A DNA stretch of 64,000 nucleotides from Octopus sinensis. Taxonomy: Eukaryota. Shown here piece after piece: positions 7,512 to 62,350 of the stretch; position 1 is the first letter of the stretch, and every line of letters begins with the position of its first letter. The notes under the pieces were generated by a model. That model was not told where the DNA came from and made no database searches. It saw nothing but the letters and a program-made list of their open reading frames with translations. Made by a program: the position numbers and the translations under genes. Where the stretch lies: NCBI RefSeq assembly GCF_006345805.1, contig NC_043011.1, positions 40,436,464-40,500,463 on the forward strand, given 5' to 3'.

Positions 7512-7564
<53 letters not shown>

Positions 7565-7672
7565 ATAAATATTAGGGAATAAATCCAATTTACAGGGAAA
7601 ATCAGATTTATGATTGAATCCAATTTTATAGTATTTCTTTGTTGATTTGCAAAATAGTGGTTTTAGCTCTAA

Positions 7673-7703
<31 letters not shown>

Positions 7704-7981
7704 ATTAATTAATAAGGGTGAGAGAATTAGATACTAATTTAATAGTATATCTATTCTACATCAAGTGGCCTGTGCTCCGAGAACCTGGATTATTATAATA
7801 TTTTATATATATTATAATATTTTTACAAAATAAATATAAGAGAGTGGTCACTATATGGCTCACTCTAGCAGCAGTTAATCCAATAGGTTTCAACCACAAA
7901 AATACATGTTTCCCATGAAAGTCAGTACGATTGTTAGCTCACACGGACAGAGCAAATAAAAAATAACAAAAATACAGATTA

Positions 7982-8063
7982 TTTTGGGACAATTGTTTCG
8001 CTATTAATGAATTAAATGTAATTTTACTTACAAAAAAATCCACTTGTAGCTCCTCAGCCAAAA
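7982..8063 (-). ncRNA. type I hammerhead ribozyme (array 1 left arm; also near 8522, 9056, 9587, 10120)
   Basis: UUUUGG-CUGAGGA-GCUA[hairpin]UAGC-GAAAC-AAUU-GUC^CCAAAA; all core nucleotides canonical. Confidence 0.88.
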
Positions 8064-11000
8064 CTATCTGGATGAAATCCACTCAATCAATCACACGCCA
8101 GATTTTATCATAACGATAAATACGCGTGTGGTTCAATTGATTACATCCGACGTTAAATTCAAATGCCCCAACCAACAGCGCGCCAAATTTTCACGGAAAA
8201 CAAATACAGCATTTAGAAATAAATGCAGCATAATTATAATTAATAATAAGGGTGAGAGAATTAGATACTAATTTAATAGTATATTCTATTCTACACCAAG
8301 TGGCCTAGTGCTCCGAGAAACCTGGATTATTATAATATTTTATAATATATTATAATATTTTTACAAAATAAATATAAGAGAGTGGTCACTATATGGCTCA
8401 CTCTAGCACCAGTTAATCTAATAGGTTTCACACACACAAAAATACATGTTTCCCATGAAAGTCAGTACGATTGTTAGCTCACACGGACAGGGCAAATAAA
8501 AAATAACAAAAATACAGATTATTTTGGGACAATTGTTTCGCGCTATTAATGAATTAAATGTAATTTTACTTACAAAAAAATCCCACTGTAGCTCCTCAGC
8601 CAAAACTATCTGGATGAAATCCACTCAATCACACGCCAGATTTTATCATAACGATAAATACGCGTGTGGTTCAATTGATTACATCCGACGTTATAATTCA
8701 AATGCCCCAACCAACAGCGCGCCAAATTTTCACGGAAAACAAATACAGCATTTAGAAATAAATGCAGCATAATTATAATTATTAATAAGGGTGAGAGAAT
8801 TAGATACTAATTTAATAGTTAATCTATTCTACACCAAGTGGCCTAGTGCTCGCGAGAAACCTGGATTATTATAATATTTTATAATATATTATAATTTTTT
8901 ACAAAATAAATATAAGAGAGTGGTCACTATATGGCTCACTCTAGCACCAGTTAATCCAATAGGTTTCAACCACAAAAATACATGTTTCCATGAAAGTCAG
9001 TACGATTGTTAGCTCACACGGACAGGGCAAATAAAAAATAACAAAAATACAGATTATTTTGCGACAATTGTTTCGCTATTAATGAATTAATGTAATTTTA
9101 CTTACAAAAAAATCCACTTGTAGCTCCTCAGCCAAAACTATCTGGATGAAATCCACTCAATCACACGCCAGATTTTATCATAACGATAAATACGCGTGTG
9201 GTTCAATTGATTACATCCGACGTTATAATTCAAATGCCCCAACCAACAGCGCGCCAAATTTTCACGGAAAACAAATACAGCATTAGAAATAAATGCAGCA
9301 TAATTATAATTAATTAATAAGGGTGAGAGAATTAGATACTAATTTAATAGTATATCTATTCTACACCAAGTGGCCTAGTGCTCCGAGAAACCTGGATTAT
9401 TATAATATTTTATAATATATTATAATATTTTTACAAAATAAATATAAGAGAGTGGTCACTATATGGCTCACTCTAGCACCAGTTAATCCAATAGGTTTCA
9501 ACCACAAAAATACATGTTTCCCATGAAAGTCAGTACGATTGTTAGCTCACACAGGACAGGGCAAATAAATAACAAAAATACAGATTATTTTGGGACAATT
9601 GTTTCGCTATTAATGAATTAAATGTAATTTTACTTACAAAAAAATCCACTTGTAGCTCCTCAGCCAAAACTATCTGGATGAAATCCACTCAATCACACGC
9701 CAGATTTTATCATAACGATAAATACGCGTGTGGTTCAATTGATTACATCCGACGTTATAATTCAAATGCCCCAACCAACAGCGCGCCAAATTTTCACGGA
9801 AAACAAATACAGCATTTAGAAATAAATGCAGCATAATTATAATTAATTAATAAGGGTGAGAGAATTAGATACTAATTTAATAGTATATCTATTCTACACC
9901 AAGTGGCCCGTGCTCCGAGAACCTGGATTATTATAATATTTTATATATATTATAATATTTTTACAAAATAAATATAAGAGAGTGGTCACTATATGGCTCA
10001 CTCTAGCACCAGTTAATCCAATAGGTTTCAACCACAAAAATACATGTTTCCCATGAAAGTCAGTACGATTGTTAGCTCACACGGACAGGGCAAATAAAAA
10101 ATAACAAAAATACAGATTATTTTGGGACAATTGTTTCGCTATTAATGAATTAAATGTAATTTTACTTACAAAAAAATCCACTTGTAGTTCCTCAGCCAAA
10201 ACTATCTGGATGAAATCCACTCAATCACACGCCAGATTTTATCATAACGATAAATACGCGTGTGGTTCAATTGATTACATCCGACGTTATAATTCAAATG
10301 CCCCAACCAACAGCGCGCCAAATTTTCACGGAAAACAAATACAGCATTTAGAAATAAATGCAGCATAATTATAATTAATTAATAAGGGTGAGAGAATTAG
10401 ATACTAATTTAATAGTATAATCTATCTACACCAAGTGCCTATTAACTGGTGCTAGAGTGAGCCATATAGTGACCACTCTCTTATATATTTGTAAAAATAT
10501 TATAATATATTATAATATTATAATAATCCAGGTTTCTCGGAGCACTAGGCACTTGGTGTGTAGAATAGATATACTATTAAATTAGTATCTAATTCTCTCA
10601 CCCTTATTAATTAATTTAATTATGCTGCATTTATTTCTAAATGCTGTATTTGTTTTCGTGAAAATTTGGCGCGCTGTTTGTTGGGGCATTTGAATTATAA
10701 CGTCGGATGTAATCAATTGAACCACACGCGTATTTATCGTTATGATAAAATGGGCGTGTGATTGAGTGGATTTCATCCAGATAGTTTTGGCTGAGGAGCT
10801 ACAAGTGGATTTTTTTGTAAGTAAAATTACATTTAATTCATTAATAGCGAAACAATGTCCAAAATAATCTGTATTTTTGTTATTTTTTATTTGCCCTGTC
10901 CGTGTGAGCTAACAATCGTACTGACTTTCATGGGAAACATGGATTTTGTGGTTGAAACCTATTGGATTAACTGGTGCTAGAGTGAGCCATATAGTGACCA

Positions 11001-12374
11001 CTCTCTTATAATTTATTTTGTAAAAATATTATAATATATTATAAAATATTATAATAATCCAGGTTTCTCGGAGCATTAGGCCACTTGGTGTAGAATAGAT
11101 ATACTATAAATTAGTATCTAATTCTCTCACCCTATTAATTAATTATAATTATGCTGCATTTATTTTAATGCTGTATTTGTTTTCCGTGAAAATTTGGCGC
11201 GCTGTTGGTTGGGGCATTTGAATTATAACGTCGGATGTAATCATTGAACCACACGCGTATTTATCGTTATGATAAAATCTGGCGTGTGATTGAGTGGATT
11301 TCATCCAGATAGTTTTGGCTGAGGAGCTACAAGTGGATTTTTTTGTAAGTAAAATTACATTTAATTCATTAATAGCGAAACAATTGTCCAAAATAATCTG
11401 TATTTTTGTTATTTTTTATTTGCCCTGTCCGTGTGAGCTAACAATCGTACTGACTTTCATGGGAAACATGTATTTTGTGTGGTTGAAACCTATTGGATTA
11501 ACTGGTGCTAGAGTGAGCCATATAGTGACCACTCTCTTATATTTATTTTGTAAAAATATTATAATAATATAAAATATTATAATAACCAGGTTTCTCGGAG
11601 CACTAGGCCACTTGGTGTAGAATAGATATACTATTAAATTAGTATCTAATTCTCTCACCCTTATTAATTAATTATAATTATGCTGCATTTATTTCTAAAT
11701 GCTGTATTTGTTTTCCGTGAAAATTTGGCGCGCTGTTGGTTGGGGCATTTGAATTATAACGTCGGATGTAATCAATGAACCACACGCGTATTTATCGTTA
11801 TGATAAAATCTGGCGTGTGATTGAGTGGATTTCATCCAGATAGTTTTGGCTGAGGAGCTACAAGTGGATTTTTTTGTAAGTAAAATACATTTAATTCATT
11901 AATAGCGAAACAATTGTCGCAAAATAATCTGTATTTTTGTTATTTTTTATTTGCCCTGTCCGTGTGAGCTAACAATCGTACTGACTTTCATGGGAAACAT
12001 GTATTTTTGTGGTTGAAACCTTTGGATTAACTGGTGCTAGAGTGAGCCATATAGTGACCACTCTCTTATATTTATTTTGTAAAAATATTATAATATATTA
12101 TAAAATATTAAATAATCCAGGTTTCTCGGAGCACTAGGCCACTTGGTGTAGAATAGATATACTATTAAATTAGTATCTAATTCTCTCACCCTTATTAATT
12201 AATTATAATTATGCTGCATTTATTTCTAAATGCTGTATTTGTTTTCCGTGAAAATTTGGCGCGCTGTTGGTTGGGGCATTTGAATTATAACGTCGGATGT
12301 AATCAATTGAACCACACGCGTATTTATCGTTATGGTAAATCTGGCGTGTGATTGAGTGGATTTCATCCAGATAG

Positions 12375-12456
12375 TTTTGGCTGAGGAGCTACAAGTGGAT
12401 TTTTTTGTAAGTAAAATTACATTTAATTCATTAATAGCGAAACAATTGTCCCAAAA
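12375..12456 (+). ncRNA. type I hammerhead ribozyme (array 1 right arm; also near 10785, 11313, 11844, 12906, 13437)
   Basis: TTTTGG CTGAGGA GCTA...TAGC GAAAC AATT GTC CCAAAA; stem I extends by CAGAT/ATCTG. Confidence 0.88.
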
Positions 12457-13671
12457 TAATCTGTATTTTTGTTTTTTTATTTGCCCTGTCCGTGTGAGCT
12501 AACAATCGTACTGACTTTCATGGGAAACATGTATTTTTGTGGTTGAAACCTTTTGGATTAACTGGTGCTAGAGTGAGCCATATAGTGACCACTCTCTTAT
12601 ATTTATTTTGTAAAAATATTATAATATATTATAAAATATTATAAAATCCAGGTTTCTCGGAGCACTAGGCCACTTGGTGTAGAATAGATATACTATTAAT
12701 TAGTATCTAATTCTCTCACCCTTATTAATTAATTATAATTATGCTGCATTTATTTCTAAATGCTGTATTTGTTTTCCGTGAAAATTTGGCGCGCTGTTGG
12801 TTGGGGCATTTGAATTATAACGTCGGATGTAATCAATTGAACCACACGCGTATTTATCGTTATGGTAAAATCTGGCGTGTGATTGAGTGGATTTCATCCA
12901 GATAGTTTGGGCTGAGGAGCTACAAGTGGATTTTTTTGTAAGTAAAATTACATTTAATTCATAATAGCGAAACAATTGTCCCAAAATAATCTGTATTTTT
13001 GTTATTTTTTATTTGCCCTGTCCATGTGAGCTAACAATCGTACTGACTTTCATGGGAAACATGTATTTTTGTGGTTGAAACCTATTGGATTAACTGGTGC
13101 TAGAGTGAGCCATATAGTGACCACTCTCTTATATTTATTTTGTAAAAATATTATAATATATTATAAAATATTATAATAATCCAGGTTTCTCGGAGCACTA
13201 GGCCACTTGGTGTAGAATAGATATACTATTAAATTAGTATCTAATTCTCTCACCCTTATTAATTAATTATAATTATGCTGCATTTATTTCTAAATGCTTA
13301 TTTGTTTTCCGTGAAAATTTGGCGCGCTGTTGGTGGGGCCTTTGAATTATAACGTCGGATGTAATCAATTGAACCACACGCGTATTTATCGTTATGATAA
13401 AATCTGCGTGTGATTGAGTGGATTTCATCCAGATAGTTTTGGCTGAGGAGCTACAAGTGGATTTTTTTGTAAGTAAAATTACATTTAATTCATTAATAGC
13501 GAAACAATTGTCGCCAAAATAATCTGTATTTTTGTTATTTTTTATTTGCCCTGTCCGTGTGAGCTAACAATCGTACTGACTTTCATGGGAAACATGTATT
13601 TTGGTGGTTGAAACCTATTGGATTAACTGGTGCTAGAGTGAGCCATATAGTGACCACTCTCTTATATTTAT

Positions 13672-13705
<34 letters not shown>

Positions 13706-14589
13706 ATATAATATATATATATATATGTATATGGATATGGATATGATATTATATAAATGTGTAGAGGTAACAGATAGTAGTAATTTGCATTCACAGACAG
13801 TTCAACTGTCATGCCATGAAAATTAACGGAAATTACCATGTGCTCTTCTAGAAAAAAGGAAAGTAAACTATGACTTGATTTTAATTTTAATTTAATTTTA
13901 TTAATACCTCCTTTTTTTATCTCTACATATTCAATTTTAGATCATTTTTTTGATAAGGTTTTTCAAAAACCGAAATATGTAAAACGTAACCAAAACATTC
14001 TTCCTTAATATATTTATTTAAAGGGAAATTAAAATGTTCCCAATTTTAAAAATGTAGCATTTTCGTTCTTCTTTTTCATATATATATATAAGAAATAATT
14101 GATAGAGAATGTAGAATATACTGGAAACTTATTTATCACGACGGTTGTTTCTAGACATCCTGCGCAACTCTCTTCCGCATTGATTGTTTCTACTATACTC
14201 AACCTGCACTGTGGAATTCCTAACGTAGATCCAGCGGCGATTGTGCAGTTACCGTGGATGACGCCTGCTAGCCATAAACAGTGAACGTGCTTTGCCGGCA
14301 TACATCTAGGGACATACTAAAACGCAGTTTAAATTTAAAATGTAAATTTAAACTTTAATTATAACACACACTCACAGACACGCACACATTTATATATATA
14401 GATATAAGAGAACAAAATATGAACATACAGTTGCAAGGTATCACATACTCAATATTTTTATATACCACATCGAAGTGACAACAAGATCATATAAATATAT
14501 CTGGAAGTCAGGAAGATACGGATGGTAAAATTTTATAGTGATTTGGTGAAGACGGCTTCTCCAGAACGAGATGGAAGAAAATATGTATG

Positions 14590-15250: not shown

Positions 15251-15639
15251 TCACTCACTCACTCACGTTCGTAGGTATAGTGAAGCAGAGGGTTGCACAA
15301 TTCACGTATTGAGTCGACAAAAACATATTTGGTTAATTAAATTTAGACCCGTGTTGGAAATAAAAGTTATTAGCTATCATTAGTAATAATTCTCGTCTAA
15401 AAAGAACTCTCCGAAATGCAAATTGAATATAATTTCTATAGGATTATGTAGTGGTGTGGGAGATTGATCTTGGGCAAGTGTAGGGATTATGAGTGACATG
15501 TTTCTAATTTATTCAGCCACTTCAGTTTTATTCTTACTAGAAAAATTTCTAGAAACAGTGAAAATATTCAAAAAAAAATTAATAAAAATCTATTATATAA
15601 ATTATCTTCAAAAGAAGATTAGCAAACACCTGTTGAACT

Positions 15640-16126
15640 ATTTACATTTGACGGATATTTGTCCTCATCTTGTTTGTCGGGAGACCGTACATGTGTGGTG
15701 GTTTATCGTAGTGTCAAGTCAGTTGACTGTATTTCATTGGTGTAAAGTGATCCTTAATCAAGATCTGTGACAACTTCCTCTCTGTTTTCAGAGATGGGTC
15801 TTTCTTTACTTTGCTGTAGCTACCATCACTTATAAGACTTGCCAAGTTTTCCGAGCAGCCATACTTGTTCATCACCAATGTAGCATTTCCTTTGTCTGAC
15901 AACTCGAAAAACTTGGCAAGTCTTATAAGTGATGGTAGCTACAGCAAAGTAAAGAAAGACCCATCTCTGAAAACAGAGAGGAAGTTGTCACAGATCTTCA
16001 TCAAGAACAAGGGTCACTTAACACCAATGAAATATAGACAACTGACTCGACACTACACTAAACTACCTCACATGTACGGTCTCCCAAACAAACAAGATAA
16101 GGAGAAATATCCGTCAAATGTAAATA
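15640..16126. mobile_element. inverted pair of Penelope-like RT N-terminal fragments
   Basis: Minus: DKGNATLVMNK...LISDGSYSKVKKDPSLKTERKL. Plus: LISDGSY...KLPHMYGLP. DKG and P.xYGLPK are PLE RT motifs. Arms 15640-15850 and 15910-16126. Confidence 0.8.
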
Positions 16127-16334
16127 ATCTAAATAATGTACATAATTCCTCATCTCTTAAATATTGAACTGTATTACACCTGTTGGAAGTAAATTTTTGT
16201 GTAGGCGCGTTTCAGTATTCTCAGCTTTTGAAACCCACCTGTTTTAAGGTGTGTGTATACATACACATGCCGTGCACACACATGCGTGCATACACACATA
16301 CATATATCTATATACATGTGTGCATGTGTGGATG

Positions 16335-16365
<31 letters not shown>

Positions 16366-16420
16366 TCAGGGTGAGTACTTGATAATTGTAAGCACCTGTA
16401 TATACCGTTTATAAAACAAA

Positions 16421-16582
16421 ATGATGCCAAGGATTCAGCGGTACATATGTTTCGGGCCTTTATTAGACGGATTTATAACAATGCATAATGTGTGTCTATG
16501 GCCTTAGACACACATTATGCATTGTTATAAATCCGTCTAATAAAGGCCCGAAACATATGTACCGCTGAATCCTTGGCATCAT
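16421..16582. repeat. perfect ~78-bp-arm hairpin containing the 3' half of a hammerhead
   Basis: ATGATGCCAAGG...TGTGTCTA / TAGACACA...CCTTGGCATCAT; each arm carries GGCCC-GAAAC-ATAT-GTA. Confidence 0.85.
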
Positions 16583-16605
16583 GTTTTTATTTTGATTAAT
16601 TTATT

Positions 16606-16868: not shown

Positions 16869-17091
16869 ATTGTATAAAAGATCGTGGGTAAGGCCAAAAC
16901 AATGCTAAGTAAATGCAAGGTAAATCACCAGAAAACAAATATGTGAATTAATATAGACTTACCTTATATTCAGTATTTCGGGGTTATTGAATACAAGATA
17001 AGTCTACATTAATTCACATATTTGTTTTCTTGTGATTTCCCTTGCATTTACTTCGCATTGTTTTGGCCTTACCCACGATCCTTTATACAAT
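16869..17091. repeat. inverted repeat, ~93-bp arms, ~37-bp spacer
   Basis: 16869-16961 is the reverse complement of 16999-17091 with a few mismatches. Confidence 0.85.
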
Positions 17092-19856: not shown

Positions 19857-19892
19857 TTCCGGTAGATTTCGACTTTTTAACTTTCGGGGTCA

Positions 19893-20309
19893 CTCTTTTA
19901 CTTGTTTCAGTCATTTGACTGTGGCCATGCTGGAGCACCACCTTTAGTCGAGCAAATTGGGGACTTATTCTTTGTAAGCCTAGTACTTATTCTATCGGTC
20001 TTTGGCCGAACCGCTAAGTTACGGGGACGTAAACACACCAGCATCGGTTGTCAAGCGATGTTGGGGCGACAAACACAGACACACACACACAGACACACAC
20101 ACACACACACGCGCGCACACACACACACTCACACACACACACATACATATATATATACATATATACGACGGGCTTCTTTCAGTTTCCGTCTACCAAATCC
20201 ATTCTCAAGGCTTTGTTCGACTCGCGGCTATAGTAGAAGACACTTGCCTGTACCCGGAACCATGTGGTCGGTAAGCAAGCTACTTACCACACACCTACTC
20301 CTACGCCTA
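19893..20309 (-). mobile_element. SINE family C, nested in a family-B copy
   Basis: tRNA-like head, internal (CA)n/(TA)n, AAAGAGT tail; family-B sequence on both sides. Confidence 0.8.
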
Positions 20310-20511
20310 CGGGTTGATAAATCATTCTTTTCTACTCCAGGCACAAGGCTCGAAATTTTTGGGGAGGTGTCAAGTCGATTAGATCTACCCCAGTACTCAA
20401 CTGGTACTGATAGACAAAGTATTATTTGAACACTGGTATCGATGTAGTCGACTTCCTTCATCTCCTTAAAATTGCTGACTTTGTACTAAAAATTAGAAAG
20501 AATTATTGACA

Positions 20512-20660
20512 AGGAGTGGTTGTGTGGTAAGAAGCTTTCTTACCAACTACATGATTCTAGGTTCAGTCCCACTGCGTGGCACCTTGGACGACTGTCTTCT
20601 GCTATAGCCTCGGGCCGACTGAAGCCTTGTGGGTGGTAGACAGAAACTGAAATAAGCTCG

Positions 20661-20694
<34 letters not shown>

Positions 20695-20900
20695 TTGTAT
20701 GTCTGTTTGTTCCTCCTCCACCGTCGCTTGACAACCGATGTTGGTGTGACTACGTCCCCGTAACTTAGCAGTTCAGCAATAGAGACCGATAGAATAAGTA
20801 CTAGGCTTACAAAGAATAAGTTCGATTTGTTCGACTAAAGGCGGAGCTCCAGCATGGCTGCAGTCAAATGACTGAAACAAATAAAAGAGTAAAAGAGTAA
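20512..20900 (+). mobile_element. SINE family C
   Basis: AGGAGTGGTTGTGTGGTAAG...GGTTCAGTCCC...CACCTTGGACG; tail (AAAAGAGT)2. Confidence 0.8.
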
Positions 20901-24155: not shown

Positions 24156-25108
24156 GCAAACTTTTACTTTTCTTAATTTAGAATAATAACATCTGGAGAA
24201 CATTTCCAGAAAGTGTAAATTTATCGATTTTTTTTCAAGCATATATCCTTCGCCATCTGTAAGAAGAATAAGTAACAACAACGAGGAGGCGGTTTATTTA
24301 TAATTTCTTTCGAAAGACGTAGAGCGAAGGAAAGTAACATTCTTTTGTTCTCTCAGTTCTCTTCAGTTTTGAAGAGCGAATACAATAGCAGAAGATGCAA
24401 AGATTGAATGACACAATCGAAACGATTTTGTTTATGCTTTTGTTTTTCAGGAGGTTTGAGAATATTAAAGAAAGCTATAAAACAATAAAGATTAAACTGA
24501 ACGTAAAGAAGTGGGCTACGATGACAACGATGACGACGACGATGAGGAGGACGACAAAGACGCGGACGACAACAACGATGGCGAAGGCAACGACAACGAT
24601 GATGATGATGGTGACAAAACGAGGCTGTACAAATTCATTAGGAAACATCTACCGACGCATATCTAATAGTATACACCATGCTTCGATATATCAAATACAA
24701 ACAATCACACATATACACTTATAAAGAAGTACACACACAGGCACGATTTTTGCATGGTTATATATGTATAAAGAAAACTCCGAATGACCCGTCCTTGTTT
24801 TCTTTGTATCCTCTATCTGGATGTTTTGTTGTCCCTTTCTTGTATCACCTAACTGTCTGGATGTTTTGCGTTCTTGTTCCATTTTGTATTATATATATAT
24901 ATATATATATATTATGTGAAATAGAAAGATGAATAATCTTGTAGCAGATTAATCAAAAGTTTAACCGATACCTTGGTAGCAAAAATCACAGCAGAAGACA
25001 GCACAGTTGGAGGTACAACCATATGGTGTTGCAACCGTGCGTTGGTGCGGATAATTGAATTTTAATATTATTAGTGAAATGAAGAAATGGAGCTGAACGA
25101 AATCGTTT

Positions 25109-25201
25109 TATTTCATTCTACACGTGTTTCGAAAGGCACAATTTACCAAAATCCGACTGAATAATGAGACCATATTGTGTCTTTCTCTTCAGGAAGAAAT
25201 A
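25109..25201 (-). ncRNA. type I hammerhead ribozyme
   Basis: Reverse complement of 26314-26406. Confidence 0.9.
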
Positions 25202-26313
25202 GGAAATCCGTTGGAAAAAACAAAAACAGAACAGAGGCGGAGCAAAACAAATCGAACTAGGCTCCTAAGAGCCCATGGCCAAACTGTTTATCAGTGTATA
25301 TTGAGAACGGGTGGTGGGTGCGTTGAAGAATTTAACGGGTCAGGCAGCGGTCATTCCTGTGGGTGAGGGCACGAGGTGTGTAGATGTTCTTTGTGACCGA
25401 GAGTAAAGTTCTGACTATTTAAAGAATATTGGATGTATTATATGGGGCGAGTCAAAATCTACTTAGAGACATGTGTGTGTTTACTGTTCTATATATGTGT
25501 GCTGGCGCGAGTTGGTAAGAAGCGCTATTTTCTGGTCACTGCTGAGAACTCCGTCAAGGGGTAGAAAACATTTTTTGTGTACGTGTGTGCGTTTGATCGC
25601 GCGGCTGTCAGTTGTTAAACAGCTCTACACAATGGTCACTGCAGTAAAAACCGTCGGGCGGCAGAAAAATATTTTATGTTTTATGTGTGCGTGTGTTCGT
25701 CTAATCATGCCTTGTCAAAGAGACCCCCCGTCGTCAAAAACAAAGCCCCATTCATCTCACAGGAGTAGTGAGATGAGCATGATTAGACGAACATGATTGA
25801 CAAGGCATGATTAGACGAACACACGCACACATAAAACATAAAATATTTTTCTGCCGCCCGACGGTTTTTACTGCAGTGACCATTGTGTAGAGCTGTTTAA
25901 CAACTGACAGCCGCGCGATCAAACGCACACACGTACACAAAAAATGTTTTCTACCCCTTGACGGAGTTCTCAGCAGTGACCAGAAAATAGCGCTTCTTAC
26001 CAACTCGCGCCAGCACACATATATAGAACAGTAAACACACACATGTCTCTAAGTAGATTTTGACTCGCCCCATATAATACATCCAATATTCTTTAAATAG
26101 TCAGAACTTTACTCTCGGTCACAAAGAACATCTACACACCTCGTGCCCTCACCCACAGGAATGACCGCTGCCTGACCCGTTAAATTCTTCAACGCACCCA
26201 CCACCCGTTCTCAACATACACCGATAAACAGTTTGGCCATGGGCTCTTAGGAGCCTAGTTCGATTTGTTTTGCTCCGCCTCTGTTCTGTTTTTGTTTTTT
26301 CAAACGGATTTCC

Positions 26314-26406
26314 TATTTCTTCCTGAAGAGAAAGACACAATATGGTCTCATTATTCAGTCGGATTTTGGTAAATTGTGCCTTTCGAAACACGTGTAGAAT
26401 GAAATA
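26314..26406 (+). ncRNA. type I hammerhead ribozyme
   Basis: TATTTCTTC-CTGAAGA-GAAAGACACAAT...ATTGTGCCTTTC-GAAAC-ACGT-GTA^GAATGAAATA. Confidence 0.9.
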
Positions 26407-26454
26407 AAACGATTTCTGTTCAATCTTCGTTCAGCTCCATTTCTTCATTTCACT

Positions 26455-26499
<45 letters not shown>

Positions 26500-30348: not shown

Positions 30349-30705
30349 AAGCGACAAGGGAAATGTATGGAGTTTGGATGCCAGCGAAAATAGCTGGGAG
30401 GCAATTTAAAAATCGATCTTTAAAGCAGAAATGTCAATATAACTAAAATAGCTATTTCTTATTATGAATAATTGTTATAACAAAAATAATAGGCTGATAG
30501 GCAAGGAGAAAGGTTTACATGAATAAAATAAATAATGAAAAATAGAGGAAACAAAGAGAAAAGAAGAGAAAGAAAAAGAAGAAACTCTAACCAGCTTTCT
30601 ATAGTATTCTTATACAAGGCTTTAATGCATTCTCAACGGCTTCTTGCGTTGTAATGATTTCAAATGTAGACTTAGAGGCCGTGGATTTTTTGTCGTACAG
30701 TACTT

Positions 30706-31212
30706 CTCTATGGTTGTGAAACGTGGCCTATGCGGGTGGTCGATCAACGAAGGCTCGAAGTCTTCGACAATGACTGCCTCCGGTGCATTCTTCGCTGCCA
30801 TCGGGTGGATCGAGTTCCCACCGCCAATCTCCGACTTCGCCTGTCTCTGCGGCCCCTTCCATCTGTCCTTCTGCAACGGCGCTTGCGGTGGTTTGGCCAT
30901 GCATGTAGGCATCCGGTGGGTGAACTGAGCCGTGATGTCCTTCTCCCAACTCCACTTCCCAACTGGCGGAAACGCGCGGGCGGGCAGCTGAAGACCTGGG
31001 TTACGACGATCAAGGAGGACCTCTCTGTGCTCACGGGACCGCAGGTGGTCGGCCTGCGCCAGTGGAACCGTGACTGGCTCGCTATCTCTAGTGAACTGGC
31101 GCACGACCATCGTGCGTGGGCTGCCATGGTTCGAGATGCCTCGAGGATGGTAGAAGAAGCCGACTCAACCCGCCCAGGGTGAATGTCGCCACAAGTACAA
31201 GTACAAGTAAGT
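30706..31212 (+). mobile_element. RTE-clade LINE 3' end, 5'-truncated
   Basis: LYGCETWP...CLRCIL...RRLRWFGHACR...W C-terminus with open frame and stop at 31182, then (CAAGTA)3 tail. Confidence 0.9.
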
Positions 31213-34320: not shown

Positions 34321-34365
<45 letters not shown>

Positions 34366-34577
34366 GTGAAGGGAAGAAATGGAGCCGAACGAAGATTCTT
34401 CCCTTCACTAAATATATAAAACTTCAAGTATCCGCGCTAAAGCACGGGGGCGAAACCCCATGGTCGTAACCTCAACCGTGTCTTTTCTGGTGTGGTTTTT
34501 GCTACACAGGTATCGGTTAAATTTTGAATAATCCGTAACAAGATAATTCATTTATCCATTTCATTATGTATATATAC

Positions 34578-34785: not shown

Positions 34786-35093
34786 ATATATATTATGTAT
34801 GTATGTATATATATATATATATACATATACTATATATATATACATTTTATATATATGTATATATATGTCTATATATGTATATATATGTGTATATATATTA
34901 TATATATATATATTATATAAAAGGGCTTAGTAAAATAAATTACTTTGCCGCATACTGAACTCATTAGAAATAGCAGCTAAAAAACTTTTTTAAGGCTATT
35001 TCTAATACTTAAAGAAAATCTCTCTCATATATAGTGTTTGCATAATTTAACTCACAAAAGTTTGGGGGTAATGACATCGAAAAATCAAATGCT

Positions 35094-35163
35094 AAGGTTA
35101 TTCGAGAACGTACGTTTCAAGATTAGTCAAAACAACATTCTATCATCGGCTCGGAAATTCCTT
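35094..35163 (-). ncRNA. variant type I hammerhead (array 2 left arm; also near 35635, 36181, 36721)
   Basis: Reverse complement of the motif at 37429. Confidence 0.6.
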
Positions 35164-37428
35164 GGTTGGATTTGGAAACACTGAAAATAAGAACATACCC
35201 TCTCGAAGATCTGCTCCCAACTAACAGTGCCAACAAATTCAAAATAAGCAAGCGAAGAATCTCTGTTCTCCCCTTTCCACCAGCGTGGGTTAAAATCATC
35301 AAACTCTATGCTTATTTCGGTAAAGTCCGAAGCATTAATCAGAGGGAGATTAATTATAATTTCAACAATTGAGGGCAAAATTAATTAATTATTAATCAAT
35401 TTCACCAAGTGTTCAGTATGCAAAGGGACCATTCAAGGCGAATTCAAATTATTACATTATATAAAAGGGCTTAGTAAAATAAATTACTTTGCCGCATACT
35501 GAACTCATTAGAAATAGCAGCTAAAAAACTTTTTTAAGGCTATTTAATACTTAAAGAAAATCTCTCTCATATATAGTGTTTGCATAATTTAACTCACAAA
35601 AGTTTGGGGGTAATGACATCGAAAAATCAAATGCTAAGGTTATTCGAGAACGTACGTTTCAAGATTAGTCAAAACAACATTTCTATCATCGGCTCGGAAA
35701 TTCCTTGGTTTGGATTTGGAAACACTGAAAATAAGAACATACCCTCTCGAAGATCTGCTCCAACTAACAGTGCCAACAAATTCAAAATAAGCAAGCGAAG
35801 AATCTCTGTTCTCCCCTTTCCACCAGCGTGGGTTAAAATCATCAAACTCTATGCTTATTTCGGTAAAGTCCGAAGCATTAATCAGAGGGAGATTAATTAT
35901 AATTTCAACAATTGAGGGCAAAATTAATTAATTATTAATCAATTTCACCAAGTGTTCAGTATGCAAAGGGACCATTCAAGGCGAATTCAAATTATTACAT
36001 TATATAAAAGGGCTTAGTAAAATAAATTACTTTGCCGCATACTGAACTCATTAGAAATAGCAGCTAAAAAACTTTTTTAAGGCTATTTCTAATACTTAAA
36101 GAAAATCTCTCTCATATATAGTGTTTGCATAATTAAATCACAAAAGTTTGGGGGTAATGACATCGAAAAATCAAATGCTAAGGTTATTCGAGAACGTACG
36201 TTTCAAGATTAGTCAAAACAACATTTCTATCATCGGCTCGGAAATTCCTTGGTTTGGATTTGGAAACACTGAAAATAAGAACATACCCTCTCGAAGATCT
36301 GCTCCCAACTAACAGTGCCACAAATTCAAAATAAGCAAGCGAAGAATCTCTGTTCTCCCCTTTCCACCAGCGTGGGTTAAAATCATCAAACTCTATGCTT
36401 ATTTCGGTAAAGTCCGAAGCATTAATCAGAGGGAGATTAATTATAATTTCAACAATTGAGGGCAAAATAATTAATTATTAATCAATTTCACAAGTGTTCA
36501 GTATGCAAAGGGACCATTCAAGGCGAATTCAAATTATTACATTATATAAAAGGGCTTAGTAAAATAAATTACTTTGCCGCATACTGAACTCATTAGAAAT
36601 AGCAGCTAAAAAACTTTTTTAAGGCTATTTCTAATACTTAAAGAAAATCTCTCTCATATATAGTGTTTGCATAATTTAACTCACAAAAGTTTGGGGGTAA
36701 TGACATCGAAAATCAATGCTAAGGTTATTCGAGAACGTACGTTTCAAGATTAGTCAAAACAACATTTCTATCATCGGCTCGGAAATTCCTTGGTTTGGAT
36801 TTGGAAACACTGAAAATAAGAACATACCCTCTCGAAGATCTGCTCCCAACTAACAGTGCCAACAAATTCAAAATAAGCAAGCGAAGAATCTCTGTTCTCC
36901 CCTTTCCACCAGCGTGGGTTAAAATCATCAAACTCTATGCTTATTTCGGTAAAGTCCGAAGCATTAATCAGAGGGAGATTAATTATAATTTCAACAATTG
37001 AGGGCGCAAACACTATATATGAGAGAGATTTTCTTTAAGTATTAGAAATAGCCTTAAAAAAGTTTTTTAGCTGCTATTTCTAATGAGTTCAGTATGCGGC
37101 AAAGTAATTTATTTTACTAAGCCCTTTTATATAATGTAATAATTTGAATTCGCCTTGAATGGTCCCTTTGCATACTGAACACTTGGTGAAATTGATTAAT
37201 AATTAATTAATTTTGCCCTCAATTGTTGAAATTATAATTAATCTCCCTCTGATTAATGCTTCGGACTTTACCGAAATAAGCATAGAGTTTGATGATTTTA
37301 ACCCACGCTGGTGGAAAGGGGAGAACAGAGATTCTTCGCTTGCTTATTTTGAATTTGTTGGCACTGTTAGTTGGGAGCAGATCTTCGAGAGGGTATGTTC
37401 TTATTTTCAGTGTTTCCAAATCCAAACC

Positions 37429-37499
37429 AAGGAATTTCCGAGCCGATGATAGAAATGTTGTTTTGACTAATCTTGAAACGTACGTTCTCGAATAACCTT
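37429..37499 (+). ncRNA. variant type I hammerhead (array 2 right arm; also near 37969, 38510, 39054)
   Basis: AAGG..TTCCGAG-CCGATGA-TAGA...TCTT-GAAAC-GTAC-GTT^CTCGAA..CCTT; U4C core and GUU triplet. Confidence 0.6.
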
Positions 37500-40400
37500 A
37501 GCATTTGATTTTTCGATGTCATTACCCCCAAACTTTTGTGAGTTAAATTATGCAAACACTATATATGAGAGAGATTTTCTTTAAGTATTAGAAATAGCCT
37601 TAAAAAAGTTTTTTAGCTGCTATTTCTAATGAGTTCAGTATGCGGCAAAGTAATTTATTTTACTAAGCCCTTTTATATAATGTAATAATTTGAATTCGCC
37701 TTGAATGGTCCCTTTTGGTGAAATTGATTAATAATTAATTAATTTTGCCCTCAATTGTTGAAATTATAATTAATCTCCCTCTGATTAATGCTTCGGACTT
37801 TACCGAAATAAGCATAGAGAGTTTGATGATTTTAACCCACGCTGGTGGAAAGGGGAGAACAGAGATTCTTCGCTTGCTTATTTTGAATTTGTTGGCACTG
37901 TTAGTTGGAGCAGATCTTCGAGAGGGTATGTTCTTATTTTCAGTGTTTTCCAAAAACCAAGGAATTTCCGAGCCGATGATAGAAATGTTGTTTTGACTAA
38001 TCTTGAAACGTACGTTCTCGAATAACCTTAGCATTTGATTTTTCGATGTCATTACCCCCAAACTTTTGTGAGTTAAATTATGCAAACACTATATATGAGA
38101 GAGATTTTCTTTAAGTATTAGAAATAGCCTTAAAAAAGTTTTTTAGCTGCTATTTCTAATGAGTTCAGTATGCGGCAAAGTAATTTATTTTACTAAGCCC
38201 TTTTATATAATGTAATAATTTGAATTCGCCTTGAATGGTCCCTTTGCATACTGAACACTTGGTGAAATTGATTAATAATTAATTAATTTTGCCCTCAATT
38301 GTTGAAATTATAATTAATCTCCCTCTGATTAATGCTTCGGACTTTACCGAAATAAGCATAGAGTTTGATGATTTTAACCCACGCTGCTGGTGGAAAGGGG
38401 AGAACAGAGATTCTTCGCTTGCTTATTTTGAATTTGTTGGCACTGTTAGTTGGGAGAGCAGATCTTCGAGAGGGTATGTTCTTATTTTCAGTGTTTCCAA
38501 ATCCAAACCAAGGAATTTCCGAGCCGATGATAGAAATGTTGTTTTGACTAATCTTGAAACGTACGTTCTCGAATAACCTTAGCATTTGATTTTTCGATGT
38601 CATTACCCCCAAACTTTTGTGAGTTAAATTATGCAAACACTATATATGAGAGAGATTTTCTTTAAGTATTAGAAATAGCCTTAAAAAAGTTTTTTAGCTG
38701 CTATTTCTAATGAGTTCAGTATGCGGCAAAGTAATTTATTTTACTAAGCCCTTTTATATAATGTAATAATTTGAATTCGCCTTGAATGGTCCCTTTGCAT
38801 ACTGAACACTTGGTGAAATTGATTAATAATTAATTAATTTTGCCCTCAATTGTTGAAATTATAATTAATCTCCCTCTGATTAATGCTTCGGACTTTACCG
38901 AAATAAGCATAGAGTTTGATGATTTTAACCCACGCTGGTGGAAAGGGGAGAACAGAGATTCTTCGCTTGCTTATTTTGAATTTGTTGGCACTGTTAGTTG
39001 GGAGCAGATCTTCGAGAGGGTATGTTTATTTTCAGTGTTTCCAAATCCAAACCAAGGAATTTCCGAGCCGATGAAGAAATGTTGTTTTGACTAATCTTGA
39101 AACGTACGTTCTCGAATAACCTTAGCATTTGATTTTTCGATGTCATTACCCCCAAACTTTTGTGAGTTAAATTATGCAAACACTATATATGAGAGAGATT
39201 TTCTTTAAGTATTAGAAATAGCCTTAAAAAAGTTTTTTAGCTGCTATTTCTAATGAGTTCAGTATGCGGCAAAGTAATTTATTTTACTAAGCCCTTTTAT
39301 ATAATGTAATAATTTGAATTCGCCTTGAATGGTCCCTTTGCATACTGAACACTTGGTGAAATTGATTAATAATTAATTAATTTTGCCCTCAATTGTTGAA
39401 ATTATATATATATATTATATATATAATATATATATATATACATATATATATATGAAAGAAAGTTATTTTATTCCATGTGCGTAAAAATATATGAGCAAAG
39501 AAGTTGAAAACGCACTGGCAGTCTTTTATCTGTTTTATTTTTAATGGCTTAACCGGTTTCACACATTTTTCTGAGTTTCAAAATTTGAGATAGAAAGACG
39601 TGCGGCTATGGCGCAGCTATTTTGCATTTGACTGAAGTTCGAAAATTCTCTTTTGTTTTTATAGAGAGCTCATGACTCAAATTAATATTTGTTTAGAATA
39701 CACTTTGGCTGATACGCATGTTAGCCTAAACTTAGAGTGCAAAAAATATTGTTATATTATATTAACGCACGGACGTAGTTGGGAACATGCAAACATTTCT
39801 AAGGCTAATCACGTGATAATTCTCTACTGATTAAAAAAAAATATATCCATTTAATGGATATTAATTTAAGTCATTTTGTCTCTACAAATACGCGAATTTT
39901 CGAACTCCAGTCAGAAGCAAGACATTCGCGGCATAGCCCCCCCCCCCACGTCTTTCCATCTCACTTAATTTAAGAAAATCAGAAAAATCTATGAAACGGG
40001 TTGAGCATTCAAAAACCAACCATTTCAAAAATTCCCACTGAATTTCTCCCTTCAGGAAGGAGGAGTTAATACAAACTGGCCAACCCTGGAATTTACAGAT
40101 ACTAGGAAAACTAAGAAATAACACCATCTTAGTTGTTTGATGAAAATATTATGGTATGTGTTATGGAATGCTTCTGTCATTCCATTAGTAATAGACACTG
40201 GATTGATACACAGCCATTTTTGTAAAGACACTGAAAAGTTCCCTGTAACGATAGACAGCCATGTTCAAGAAAATAGCAGTGCTATTAGAATCAGTAAATT
40301 ATTGTTAGTGCATTCTCATACAGCATTTGATCATGAAAATTCTTATTGATCTTCAACATCTTCGTTAATCATGAATACGTTTATGCATGTTGTCAAAGAC

Positions 40401-44126: not shown

Positions 44127-44738
44127 CGTTATTATTATTATTATTATTATTAGTAGTAGTAGTAGCAGTAGTAGTAGTAGTGGTAGTAGTATTGTTAAGG
44201 CAGTGGGTTGGTAAAATTGCTACCGGGTCAGACAAAATACTTACCGGTATTTCGTCTGCCGCTACGTTCTGAGTTCAAATTCCGCCGAGGTCGACGTCAC
44301 CTTTCATCTCTTCACGGATCCATAAGGCAAGTAAGTACAGTTGCGTACTGAGGTCGTTCATTGTGCCAAAATATGAAACTGTTATGAATAACAATGAGAA
44401 TAAACCCCTATATATCTTTTCCAAACTGAAATACAATATGCATAAACAGTAAAAAAAACAACAACCTAAAAGTCAAAACAAAAACAACACTATCAAACTA
44501 CTAATATCTAGAAAGGGAAATAAAGAGAGTCAGGTGTGATGGTGGCGGCGATGGGGTGGGGTGGGGGTTGGTTGGATATTTCGGATGTTACCGATTAAAT
44601 ATCACCAGCCATATCTAATGGACTACTTGAAATAACTTGATGGAAATACTTGCTTAATGCGTTATTGTAGTCGGGATTTTAGTAAAGCATGCTTCAGCGA
44701 TGAAGAGCTGTTTCTCTTTTATACACACTTCGGTGGAT

Positions 44739-44800
<62 letters not shown>

Positions 44801-44984
44801 TATATATATATATATATACATGCATATATATATATATCTGCTATATATACTAATATATATATATACATATATTATACATACACACAAACCTGTGCACACA
44901 CACATACACACGCACATATGCATATATAACCCCCAAATATTAGACAGACAGGATATATAGAGATAAGATAAATATAGGTATATA

Positions 44985-46409: not shown

Positions 46410-46803
46410 GGCGCAGGCATGGCTGTGTGGTAAAAGCTTTTTTTCCCACCCACATAGTTCCGGGTTCAGACCCACTGCGTAGCACCTTGTGCAAGTGTCT
46501 TCTACTATAGCCTCGGGCAGATCCAAACCTTGTGAGTGGATATGGTTGACTGAAACTGAAAGAAGTCGTATATACACACACACATGCACACATATATATT
46601 TGTATGTGTTTGTGTGTGCTTTCCCACCATTGCTTGATAATTGATGTCGGTGTGTTTATGTCCCCGTCACTTTGCGGTCCGGCAAAAGAACCCGATAGAA
46701 TAAGTATAAGGCTTACAAAGAATAAGTTCTGGAGGTCAATGTGCTCGACTAAAGGCGGTACTCCAGCATGGTCGCAGTCAAGTGACCGAAACAAGTAAAA
46801 GAA
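46410..46803 (+). mobile_element. SINE family C (opposite partial copy at 46960-47160)
   Basis: GGCGCAGGCATGGCTGTGTGGTAA head, CACCTTGTGCAAGTGTC centre. Confidence 0.8.
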
Positions 46804-47191
46804 AAATGTATAAAAGAATACAAAGCAAACATTAATATTGTATATACATGTGTGTGTGTGTGTATGCATGAATGTATATGTATATATATACATACATATA
46901 TATATATATTATATATATATGTGTGTATATATAATAGATAAATATAGATATATTTTGATTCCTACTTGTTTAATTCATTTCAATGCGGCCATGCCGGAGC
47001 ACTGGCTTAAAGTGTTATTAGTCGAGGAAGTTCACACCATGACTTATTCTTTGTAAGCTGGGTACTTATTCTATCGAAGTCTTTTGACGAACCGCTAATG
47101 TTACAGGGATTTAAACACACCAACATCCGTTGTCAAACGATTGTGAATGCACAAACACACAAAAACATATGTATATATGTATATAAAACAC

Positions 47192-47730
47192 AATAAATAA
47201 TATTAAGGGTAATAAGAATTATAGAAATTATTATTACCAGTGGCCTAGCACAAAAAAATTAGTCAATAGATTATATATTATTCGCATAAAAATATCGTAT
47301 ACATTAAAACACATTAAGAGGCTTCCAAATAGGAAAGCTTTGTGCTAGAAGGAGCAGTAGAAAACTCAAACCACTAATTAGGGATAAATTCTCGAAAAGA
47401 ATAAAAATCGAAAACGTTTACCATCTAATTTAGTTCCTAGACCATGGTTTCCGACTAATTCCAGTAAAAAAATATTTACTGAGGCCAGCTTCGTCAGTAG
47501 GGAGCCTTTAGATTTCAAATATACACACAACTAGATTCACATGTAAACTAGCTGCCTGTATATCTTAACTTTTCAAAACCACTGCGCAGATGCAGTTTAT
47601 TTCCGGCGACAGAGGGGATGTACACGATATTTTTATGTGAATAATATATAGTCTATTGACTAATTTTTGTTGTGCTAGGCCACTGGTAATAATAATTTCT
47701 ATAATTCTTATTACCCTAATATTATTTATT
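47192..47730. mobile_element. fold-back element with ~90-bp inverted ends and an internal hammerhead; related to the array 1 unit
   Basis: 47192-47283 mirrors 47637-47730; TAAGGGT...ACCAGTGGCCTAG shared with array 1. Confidence 0.8.
47435..47502 (-). ncRNA. type I hammerhead, stem II base degenerate
   Basis: CCTA-CTGACGA-[..TCAGTAAA/TTTACTGG..]-GAAAC-CATG-GTC^TAGG. Confidence 0.75.
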
Positions 47731-47777
47731 ATGTTTAAATATTTTTTGATAAATTTGTTCGAAATTTTACCAGCATG

Positions 47778-48453: not shown

Positions 48454-48636
48454 TATTGTTGTTGTTGTTCTTGTAGTATCGTGGCGAAGAAAACTCACCC
48501 GATATTGATTTTAATACATATGAAAAATAATAGTTTATGTAATCAAATCTCGGTGCAAATAAACGGAAATCATAGAAAAATTGTTGTTTCGTATGAATTT
48601 TCTGCGGTTTTAAATATCTGTGAGTATAGGTATATA

Positions 48637-49344
48637 TTGGGTTGGCAACTAAGTTCCCGCCGTTTTTTAAAATTTTGGAATCTAAGAATCTAAGAATACA
48701 TTATTGATTGACTAATTAATCAATAATGTATTCACGTTTGTTGTTTACAACTTCTTTCCAACGTTCAACTAGATTTTCAATACTTCGTTGGTAGAAATCA
48801 CCCGATTTCACCGCGAAAAATTGATCCAACCAAGCTCTCAATTCTGCACCAGTATTGAACGAAACTCCGCGCATAGCATTGCTTGTGTCCATGAGTTGAG
48901 CAGTGACGAGCAAGCAAACCAGCGGAGATTGTGGCTCGATGATTTTTGTTGTCGTGACTTAAAGCATGCGGAACCCATGCTCCATATTTCTGAACCTTTC
49001 CCATCGAGGTGCGTCTTTGAGGTCAAAATTTCCATTTTTGAACTTAGCATACCAATCACGATCGGTTCTTTCAGCTATGGCACCCTCTCCATACACAACA
49101 GAAATGTTGCGAGCAGCTTTTGCAGCCTTAGAACCTTGATTAAAAGCAAAAAGGAGGTGTCGAAAATGCTCATTTTTCTTAACTGGATATTCCATTTTAA
49201 TGATCTGAAAATAAAAGAAAATTAACTAAAATTAACTAGAAGAAAAAACAAAATAGATTCCAAAATAATTCAAAAATAGAATTCTCGAAAAAAAAAAAGA
49301 TTCCAAAATTTAAAAACACGGCGGGCACCTTATTGCAAACCCAA
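48637..49344 (-). mobile_element. internally deleted mariner (mellifera-like)
   Basis: TIRs TTGGGTT(G/T)GCAA..AGG/AAGT.CCCGCCG in TA context; NEHFRHLL...KFKNGNFDL.D.PR, WVPHAL, IENLVERW. Confidence 0.9.
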
Positions 49345-49428
49345 ATATATAATGTATTATATTTATGTATGTATGTGTATATATATATATATATATATTT
49401 ACACACACACACATACATACATACATAC

Positions 49429-49487
<59 letters not shown>

Positions 49488-49606
49488 CGTTTGACTTTAT
49501 ATATATATATATATATATACACATAGATACATACATATATACACACACATATATATATATATATATTATATATATACATATACATATCTATATATACATA
49601 TATATA

Positions 49607-49644
<38 letters not shown>

Positions 49645-49669
49645 ATTATATATGCAAAACTATTGTGTA

Positions 49670-49735
<66 letters not shown>

Positions 49736-49741
49736 TATATA

Positions 49742-49894
49742 TTGGGTTTGCAACTAGGTGCCCGCCGTGTTTTTAAATTTTGGAATCTTTTTGTTTTTTT
49801 TTCGAGAATTCTATTTTTGAATTATTTTGGAATCTATTTTGTTTTTTCTTCTAGTTAATTTTAGTTAATTTTCTTTCATTTTCAGATTATTAAA
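49742..49894 (+). mobile_element. second copy of the same mariner 5' end, inverted
   Basis: Near-exact reverse complement of 49197-49344. Confidence 0.85.
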
Positions 49895-57082: not shown

Positions 57083-58305
57083 GATATCAAGAAAGTTCTT
57101 GCGGAATTTTTAATATTGGTTTCAAATTAATTTTCGTTAAATTACTTTGACTTTATATATCATTTTAAAACCGGTTTTTCGCTCTATCTAATCGTGTTAC
57201 TTTTTGAATAATTAGGCCATTTTGTCCTGGACGTTGAATACAACATGGACAAAAAGCAAATTCGCACAATTTTCTTATTCCAGTTCAACCTAGGCCGAAA
57301 AGCTGCTGAAACAGCTCGCGTGCGCTTGGCTCAGGAACCACTAATGAACGTACAGCACAATGGTGGTTCAAGAAATTTCATAGCGGTGACGAGAGTCTTG
57401 AAGATGATAAGCCTAGTGGTTGGCCATCGGATGTTTACAACGATCAACTAAGAGCCTTAGTGGAAGCCAATCCACGCCCAACTGTTCGAGAGCTTGCTTC
57501 TGAATTAGACGTAACGTATACAATTTCCAACCATTTGAAAGAAATTGGAAAAGCAAAAATACTTGAGAAATGGGTGCCGCACGAATTGAGCGACAGCCCC
57601 CCCCCCAAAAAAAAATGCCGTTTTGAAGTGCCGTCTTCCCTTCTTTTACGCGACAAGAACGACCTGTTTCTCGACCGGATTGTGACTTGCGATGAAAAGT
57701 GGATTCTTTACGACAACCGGCGACGCTCAGCTCAGTGGTTGGACGCCGATAAAGCTTCACGGCACTTTCCGAAGCCGAAGTTGCACCAAAAGAAAGTCGT
57801 GGTGAGTGTTTAATGGTCTGTGGCTGGTCTCATCCATTGACAGCTTTTTGGATCCAGGCGATACCATTACGGCGGAGAAGTACTGTCAGCAAATGGATGA
57901 AATGCATAAGAAACTCCGACAACAACAGTCAGCAATGGTCAATAGAAAAGGACCAATTCTTCTCCACGACAACGCTCGGCCGCACGTCGCACAACTGACC
58001 TTGCAGAATTTCAACGAATTTGGCCACGAAACTCTGCCTCATCTGCCATACTCACCAGACCTCTCGCCTACCGACTACCACTTTTTCAAGCATCTCTACA
58101 TCTTCCTGTGTGAGAAATGCTTCAAAAACCAAGACGATGCCAAACACGCCTTCAACGACTTCATCGGCAGCAGAATGCAGGATTTTACACGTTGGCAAAA
58201 GTGTGTTGATTCAGTGTTTATTTCGATTAATAACATTTTGTTGAGCCGAGATATGTGCATCTAAATTTAAAGGTTAAAAATGCAAGAACTTTCTTGACAA
58301 CCTAA
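57079..58305 (+). mobile_element. near full-length decayed mariner (cecropia/Hsmar1-like) in (TA)n
   Basis: TIRs TTGGGATATCAAGAAAGTTCTTGC / GCAAGAACTTTCTTGACAACCTAA. Confidence 0.93.
57245..58230 (+). pseudogene. mariner transposase, frameshifted
   Basis: [49 protein letters not shown]; spread over several frames and third catalytic D lost. Confidence 0.92.
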
Positions 58306-58855: not shown

Positions 58856-58912
<57 letters not shown>

Positions 58913-61345: not shown

Positions 61346-61349
61346 ACGG

Positions 61350-62125: not shown

Positions 62126-62350
62126 CGACATACATACATACATACATTTAGTTAATAAACTAATTCTTGATTTCATGTAGTCTTTTTTTTTGCCATTGTT
62201 AATGTTTTGTCTAACTCCTGGTTACATACAACAGATCGAATAGATATGTACACAAATTCATTGCACATACATACATGCATATATATATATATGTTTTCAT
62301 TGTTTGATTTGCCTAATAGTGGTTTTATCTCTAATTTAATATAATATAAT

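Follow-up and report, generated by a model that had tools for sequence, protein, structure and literature searches.

Two tandem arrays of approximately 540-nt units are located at 7700-13672 and 34912-39406 of the window, the 64-kb stretch of DNA analyzed in the present study, which is AT-rich and dense in microsatellites. The arrays are likely to be tandem non-autonomous retrozymes that a Penelope-like element (PLE) inserted in trans through its RT/GIY-YIG protein; the link to PLEs is made through the layout of the insertions. Each array consists of two arms joined head-to-head, the 3' ends of the ribozyme strand face outward, and (TA)n adjoins all four array ends. Furthermore, two end sites recur in each family, each insertion carries one of each, and the units are nearly identical. 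The parts of the two arrays are as follows.

7700-10441, minus strand: array 1 left arm, 5.14 family 1 units; outer end at consensus 363 ("long", +291 from the cut)
10430-10452: array 1 head-to-head junction, 5' truncations at approximately consensus 291 and 181-183, with a 1- to 3-nt overlap
10441-13672, plus strand: array 1 right arm, 6.1 units; outer end at consensus 231 ("short", +159)
13657-13672, plus strand: array 1 right terminus, a pyrimidine tract followed by an 11-nt A/T run
13673-13755: array 1 right flank, (TA)n target; candidate target-site duplication with 7678-7702
34912-37005, minus strand: array 2 left arm, 3.86 family 2 units; outer end at consensus 242 ("short", +195)
37006-39406, plus strand: array 2 right arm, 4.42 units; outer end at consensus 343 ("long", +296)

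In both arrays, the ribozyme strand was minus in the left arm and plus in the right arm, with a single flip at approximately 10441 in array 1 and at 37005/37006 in array 2. All four outer ends are therefore 3' ends of the ribozyme strand, which is where target-primed reverse transcription would start, and the 5' ends meet inside the arrays. The junctions of both arrays bring together unrelated unit positions; the junction of array 2 contains a GCAAA stretch common to both arms and an extra GC.

The consensus unit was 535 nt for family 1 (nine full units) and 546 nt for family 2 (six full units), with GC contents of 32 and 34%, respectively. Array 1 contains 21 substitutions across its 11.2 units and array 2 only 4 across 8.3 units; 82 and 20 indel events, respectively, were counted, many of which were in homopolymers. 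Protein-coding capacity was judged from frame lengths: the longest stop-to-stop frame within the arrays was at most 117 aa, and no ORF with an RT or a GIY-YIG endonuclease was found among the open frames checked in either array. Whole-unit folds were stable (z-scores of -4.9 and -4.6), and the models were not told apart by folding.

Both families carry a type I hammerhead motif.

12374-12457, plus strand: family 1 hammerhead, type I; core CTGAGGA/GAAA, GTC triplet, predicted cut after 12450
37439-37490, plus strand: family 2 hammerhead variant; core CCGATGA, GTT triplet, predicted cut after 37486

The family 1 hammerhead has a stem I of 7 bp, a stem II of 4 bp, and a stem III of 2 bp with a palindromic loop; in its last copy in array 1, the predicted cut is after 13512. 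The CCGATGA core and GTT triplet were present in all eight family 2 copies examined (that at 37443 among them), and cleavage by this core variant may be slow. A descriptor scan of the window returned 14 hammerhead matches, in contrast to none in the reversed control, and recovered four family 1 and eight family 2 copies. The motif around the cut was readable in 11 of 11 units in array 1 and in 8 of 8 units in array 2, several of them with indels. An Rfam search of the window gave no match at the gathering threshold. On the consensus, the predicted cut is after position 72 in family 1 and after position 47 in family 2.

An earlier note on this DNA quoted the four array ends, placed them in TA-like patches well away from the cleavage site, and estimated that the two ends of an array were approximately 125 nt (array 1) and 100 nt (array 2) apart in the unit. 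All four quoted strings are present in the window, and the measured offsets of 132 and 101 nt agree with these estimates. In array 1, the start motif is located at 7701, and the end motif occupies 13657-13672, within the interval that the note gave; the corresponding positions in array 2 are 34914 and 39395-39406. On the ribozyme-strand consensus, the ends are at 363 and 231 (array 1) and at 242 and 343 (array 2). All four lie 159-296 nt downstream of the cut (+291/+159 in array 1 and +195/+296 in array 2), as claimed. However, this distance is weak evidence alone because random ends are often equally far from the cut (P=0.41 for family 1 and 0.29 for family 2). The TA-like patches were also borne out: all four ends close A/T-only runs (16, 11, 11, and 8 nt), and the probability that four random ends all sit in A/T runs of at least 8 nt was 1.1e-4 in a simulation. 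Priming inside the RNA, rather than at a ribozyme-cut end, is supported, as is the position of the ends in AT patches beyond chance. The flanks of array 1 share a 25-nt interrupted TA match (7678-7702) and those of array 2 a 19-nt interrupted match; in a control for target-site duplication, 128 of 1260 tract pairs reached at least 19 nt, which corresponds to a chance of approximately 10%. If the flanking matches are true duplications, each end of array 1 has a TA overlap of approximately 3 nt, and the end at 39406 has none.

Other head-to-head insertions are present in the same window.

15633-16170: E8, Penelope-type RT fragment in a head-to-head arrangement, with the sense strand facing outward
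24911-26462: E3, head-to-head, with a hammerhead in both arms and predicted cuts at 25119 (minus) and 26396 (plus)
34361-34567: E4, a small head-to-head insertion related to E3 (78% identity), with the short end on the left and the long end on the right
47186-47736: E6, head-to-head, with a hammerhead-like motif on the minus strand (cut 47440, stem II imperfect)
58326-59516: E5, head-to-head and related to family 2 (62-65% identity), as detected in a BLAST search with the full unit

The ends of E5 are at approximately 343-347 (left) and 240-248 (right) of the family 2 consensus. Its right side is approximately one unit long, an unrelated interspersed repeat lies inside it, and its decayed hammerhead (59280-59337, plus strand) has a stem I that differs in sequence, yet still pairs. 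E3 has a long left end (+208) and a short right end (+54 on the left-arm scale), and its junction contains a hairpin and a partial duplication; a three-frame translation of its right arm revealed no open frame. E3 and E4 use identical short and long sites, approximately 154 nt apart. No target-site duplication was found at E3, E4, or E5. E8 has a one-sided tail of 37 nt (16127-16163) and a 7-nt duplication (15633-15639/16164-16170). Its RT is 66% identical to P0001 (RVT_1; DKG and YGLPKIHK motifs), through which it was identified as an RT; a Pfam search with the E8 frame itself gave no family. The arms of the older inverted insertions are 85-95% identical, and their polarity is the same as that in the arrays.

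Three small elements were also noted. At 16362-16600, a small palindrome between (TA)n tracts has approximately 50 additional bases on its left side, which terminate in CCCT and an A/T motif, and is probably another tailed head-to-head insertion. Immediately to the left of array 1, a 120-nt insert between (TA)n tracts (7560-7682) has an asymmetric appearance, ends on the minus strand in CCCT and an A/T run, and is possibly a miniature insertion of the array 1 kind. A 223-nt palindrome at 16869-17091 has arms that are 90% identical; no hammerhead was found in it.

The outward strand was the ribozyme or coding strand in all six inverted insertions with readable polarity (both arrays, E3, E5, E6, and E8). 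The ends of array 2 (343 and 242) were reused by the diverged E5, a coincidence with a chance of approximately 2/49 under free choice among the seven listed AT runs. Furthermore, positions 296-390 of family 1 align with 287-367 of family 2 (E=0.002), which places the long ends in register. This long-site module consists of a conserved ACTTGGT, an AT hairpin, CCCT, and then 16-19 mostly A/T bases; it also ends E5 and both arms of E6. More generally, a C/T tract and then 8-18 A/T bases make up each end site, and the long site has the AT hairpin just upstream; a local structure common to all six end sites was not seen in local folds. The short site of family 1 occurs once and was classed as such by analogy; a single public contig leaves the family 1 unit at consensus 230, near this site. 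One long and one short end were paired in all five mappable insertions (both arrays, E3, E4, and E5), for which the chance is 1/32 if ends are independent at 50:50. This count was confined to insertions with ends that could be located on a family reference; E6, which is without a second copy, and the asymmetric elements at 16362-16600 and 7560-7682 were outside it. The use of one module by both arms of E6 is a point against the proposed explanation. The long-short offset was 132 nt in array 1, 101 nt in array 2, and approximately 154 nt in E3/E4. The recurrence of the end sites is a result from one 64-kb window and few insertions.

We propose the following course of insertion. The PLE protein would cut both strands within (TA)n, and each cut 3' end would prime reverse transcription internally on an RNA of several units, either a circle or an uncut multimer. 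The short site would start one strand and the long site, located 100-155 nt further 3', the other. The two cDNAs would halt at unrelated points and be joined head-to-head in the middle, and the offset between the array ends would correspond to the PLE "tail". Pairing of 0-4 nt with the AT run may assist the primer in settling, without choosing the site.

The form of the template is a separate issue. The earlier note favored a circular or multimeric RNA over a cleaved linear monomer. Arms of 3.9-6.1 units exclude one pass over a cut monomer; however, the circle itself is not diagnosed, and the array ends are compatible with both a circular and a linear multimeric template. According to the available text of PMC11167929, reverse transcription of an ORF-bearing PLE begins within a linear RNA, at 111-118 nt of the ORF, and the cut is at 26. 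Therefore, ends away from the cut are not diagnostic of a circle.

The number of units may also have arisen at the DNA level. In this explanation, which we regard as unlikely, a short partial tandem of approximately 1.1 units per arm was inserted, and the arrays later grew by unequal exchange and arm conversion. Growth of this type is compatible with the end-site model, and the unit number would then be uninformative on the RNA template. The right side of E5, which is only approximately one unit long, is consistent with later growth, and local amplification is discussed in the available part of the preprint 10.64898/2026.07.22.740005. Moreover, two adjacent units of array 1 share A>G (12335 and 12865), with G being the majority letter in public contigs and the other array 1 units having A; a mixed template or gene conversion may account for this G. 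However, both arms of both arrays must have expanded and yet remained nearly identical (21 and 4 substitutions). The two arms of array 1 also share A at 11803 and 12254, which is rare in public contigs (approximately 95-100% G in three DNA-type runs, which may be from other species or individuals).

The public contigs that were aligned to one family 1 unit (4 of the 24 listed runs) showed a very high copy number and covered all bins. The contig pieces are approximately 60-240 nt, and the loose ends listed are mostly alignment breaks at indels. None of the listed runs is recorded as RNA, which says nothing on expression. In run X4 (11740-12290), single contigs jump from 11853 to 11920, resuming at the cut site, and from 12075, one base off the short site, back to 11840; shorter subfamilies are a possible source of these jumps. 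A 20-nt family 1 motif had no match in an exact scan of metagenome, genome, and viral contigs, and two shorter motifs occurred in 119, 104, and 3 stretches, respectively. These 226 loci were rejected as relatives of the units because the BLAST matches were just 21-29 nt, as expected by chance.

The earlier note attributed priming to microhomology between the (TA)n target and internal AU patches; as a model, a nicked (TA)n would anneal to any matching AU patch of a circular RNA, and the ends would accordingly be permuted. The positions of all four ends in A/T-only runs of at least 8 nt are in its favor, as is the perfect TA overlap at the ends (4, 1, 2, and 4 nt), the sum of which (11 nt) exceeds that of random positions (P=0.013). 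In family 2, two of the three patches with a TA overlap of at least 4 nt carry ends. However, the overlap was not enriched over that of positions within AT runs (P=0.20), and none of the four ends is located in the longest TA patch of either family (6 nt at 239-267 in family 1 and 7 nt at 120-127 in family 2). We consider that the start sites therefore look signal-defined rather than picked by microhomology. Further points against the microhomology explanation are that the two sites are reused in independent, diverged insertions and in an unrelated third family, that long ends pair with short ends, and that the overlap at 39406 is zero if the 19-nt match of array 2 is a true duplication, a match that has a chance of approximately 10%. 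In the available text of PMC11167929, the PLE start site is described as being without homology to the cut DNA. The ends are "permuted" in the sense that the two ends of each array differ; they are not freely permuted because the sites recur. TA pairing may fine-tune the junction without, as it appears, selecting the site. We consider the microhomology explanation quite improbable.

We hold a similarly low opinion of a stricter version of the PLE model, in which each array results from two rolling-circle reverse transcriptions by a PLE dimer from two programmed sites on a ligated circle, and the cut-site differences in array 1 are scars of copying across the ligation junction. In array 1, changes fall precisely on the scissile bond in 5 of 11 units. 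Two units have G in place of C (9062 and 11919), one has gained a G (13513), and two have each lost a C (near 10859 and 11388). The cut site was the top hotspot among the 82 events of array 1. For a 2-nt window specified in advance, P was 2e-5, and for any window it was 0.01-0.06; because the clustering was noticed before testing, the second value is the fairer one. These differences are possibly ligation or template-jump scars, or are assembly errors. Against scars, none of the eight units of array 2 has such a change, both C deletions fall within a CCC run, the assembly is rich in errors, and C has a frequency of approximately 99.6-100% at 11919 in public contigs, with no indel at or above 1% at this position. 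A search for literature on RT errors at ligation junctions found nothing directly relevant among the papers listed, and the accessible part of PMC4918200 contains nothing on junction scars. If this version is true, the scars would be direct genomic evidence for circular RNA as a transposition template.

Self-priming on an antisense transcript, with outer ends made by endonuclease resolution, may also generate inversions. It was proposed for rotifer PLEs (PMC3846280, available text), and the hairpin and partial duplication at the junction of E3 are in line with it. However, the array junctions link unrelated positions with a 1- to 5-nt overlap and have no terminal palindrome, and tail ends matched RT start sites in vitro (PMC11167929, available text). 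Therefore, we consider self-priming to be very unlikely. It is barely credible that the inversions are long-read or assembly artefacts: many indels in the arrays are in homopolymers and the junctions were unseen in public contigs of approximately 60-240 nt, but the two flanks differ, the ends are at different unit positions, the older inverted insertions share the polarity, and the layout is published for PLEs.

In LINE-1 twin priming, a single RNA is primed by both target strands, and the product carries an internal inversion joined at microhomology; the poly(A) end is used by the first primer, and the second site is variable. The arrays differ in that they have no poly(A) tail, their two start sites are internal and recurrent, and the truncations are not consistently beside the other start site. 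Twin priming with one arm stopping at the start of the other was considered; the best offsets were approximately +60 and -20 nt, which were not persuasive.

Among known systems, a close likeness is to endonuclease-positive PLEs (Penelope/Poseidon). According to the available text of PMC3846280 and PMC8557442, these elements share with the arrays an inverted, 5'-truncated head-to-head copy, a one-sided tail, and an AT-rich or (TA)n target. PMC3846280 describes a one-sided 31-bp tail, head-to-head as the commonest arrangement, and duplications of 8-10 bp, and PMC8557442 describes an inverted truncated copy, a 30- to 40-bp tail, a (TA)n bias, and multicopy non-autonomous elements. A hammerhead upstream of the end and an internal RT start are also shared (PMC11167929). 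In this in vitro study, as far as its available text extends, both strands were extended, ribozyme cleavage was dispensable, and a dimer was predicted. In contrast to PLEs, the arrays are without an RT/endonuclease ORF and have 4-6 units per arm. Their tails are 101-154 nt, whereas those published for PLEs are 30-40 nt (PMC8557442). The distance from the cut to the start is 54-296 nt in the window and approximately 85-92 nt in the anole element, and the start sites are AT-rich here instead of an AC-rich stem-loop (PMC11167929). The start site of the anole element was equal on both strands in vitro, from which strict long/short pairing is not predicted (PMC11167929, same excerpts). In pLTRs, hammerheads have been described, including opposite-strand pairs 100-700 bp apart (PMC4209133, available part). 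Non-autonomous PLEs of Chlamys, such as MRC1, are similarly non-coding PLE dependants that are multicopy head-to-tail and belong to a group favoring microsatellites; however, Chlamys elements are from green algae, and most of them are without canonical hammerheads and prefer (CA)n or (C)n (PMC8557442, available text).

The units themselves resemble animal non-LTR retrozymes in the accessible portions of PMC7229834 and Li et al. (10.64898/2026.07.22.740005): they are tandem, AT-rich, and non-coding, contain a type I hammerhead whose stem III is short and palindromic, and have a very high copy number. Their size (535/546 nt) is above the usual 150-450 nt of retrozymes and within the range of 51-972 nt in the preprint. 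The CCGATGA core and GTT triplet of family 2 are a difference from animal retrozymes. Head-to-head arrays, fixed end sites, or tails are not described in the available text of either paper, and the word "inverted" does not occur in PMC7229834 (Cervera & de la Pena 2020). A literature search that covered only a minority of subscription papers found no account of tailed head-to-head tandem retrozymes. It has been proposed that circular retrozyme RNAs are templates for RT and that PLEs may be their partners (PMC7229834), and a phylogenetic link of retrozymes to pLTRs has been reported (10.64898/2026.07.22.740005), both in the parts available.

In these two sources, the movement of retrozymes by PLEs is argued from shared ribozymes, co-occurrence, and phylogeny. 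The anatomy of the insertion is a more direct fingerprint of PLE mobilization, and both tandem arrays carry it. The layout is largely explained by known PLE biology, and the arrays broaden an established kind of insertion instead of representing a new kind. The PLE signature on tandem retrozyme arrays, tails 3-5 times longer than those described, and the long-short end pairing are new. The recurring short and long sites are precise cis-signals that may be tested in an in vitro PLE assay. Moreover, the long/short pairing bears on the origin of the inverted repeats and tails of PLEs, which was left open in the available text of PMC8557442.

Several other features of the window were noted. An abundant interspersed repeat is present at 19892-20890, 46420-47180, and 58640-59002, with some inverted pairs and one copy inside E5, and a run of N in the assembly covers approximately 44700-44980. 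Inverted arms of 150 nt face a central (TA)n tract at 49196-49894 and 48631-48683; we take their inner ends to resemble mariner-type terminal repeats. A broken mariner transposase (Pfam Transposase_1 and HTH_48) is located at 57310-58264. LINE-like RT fragments were found at 60607-62151 and 30676-31182, with a weak RVT_1 match for 60610-61341 only.
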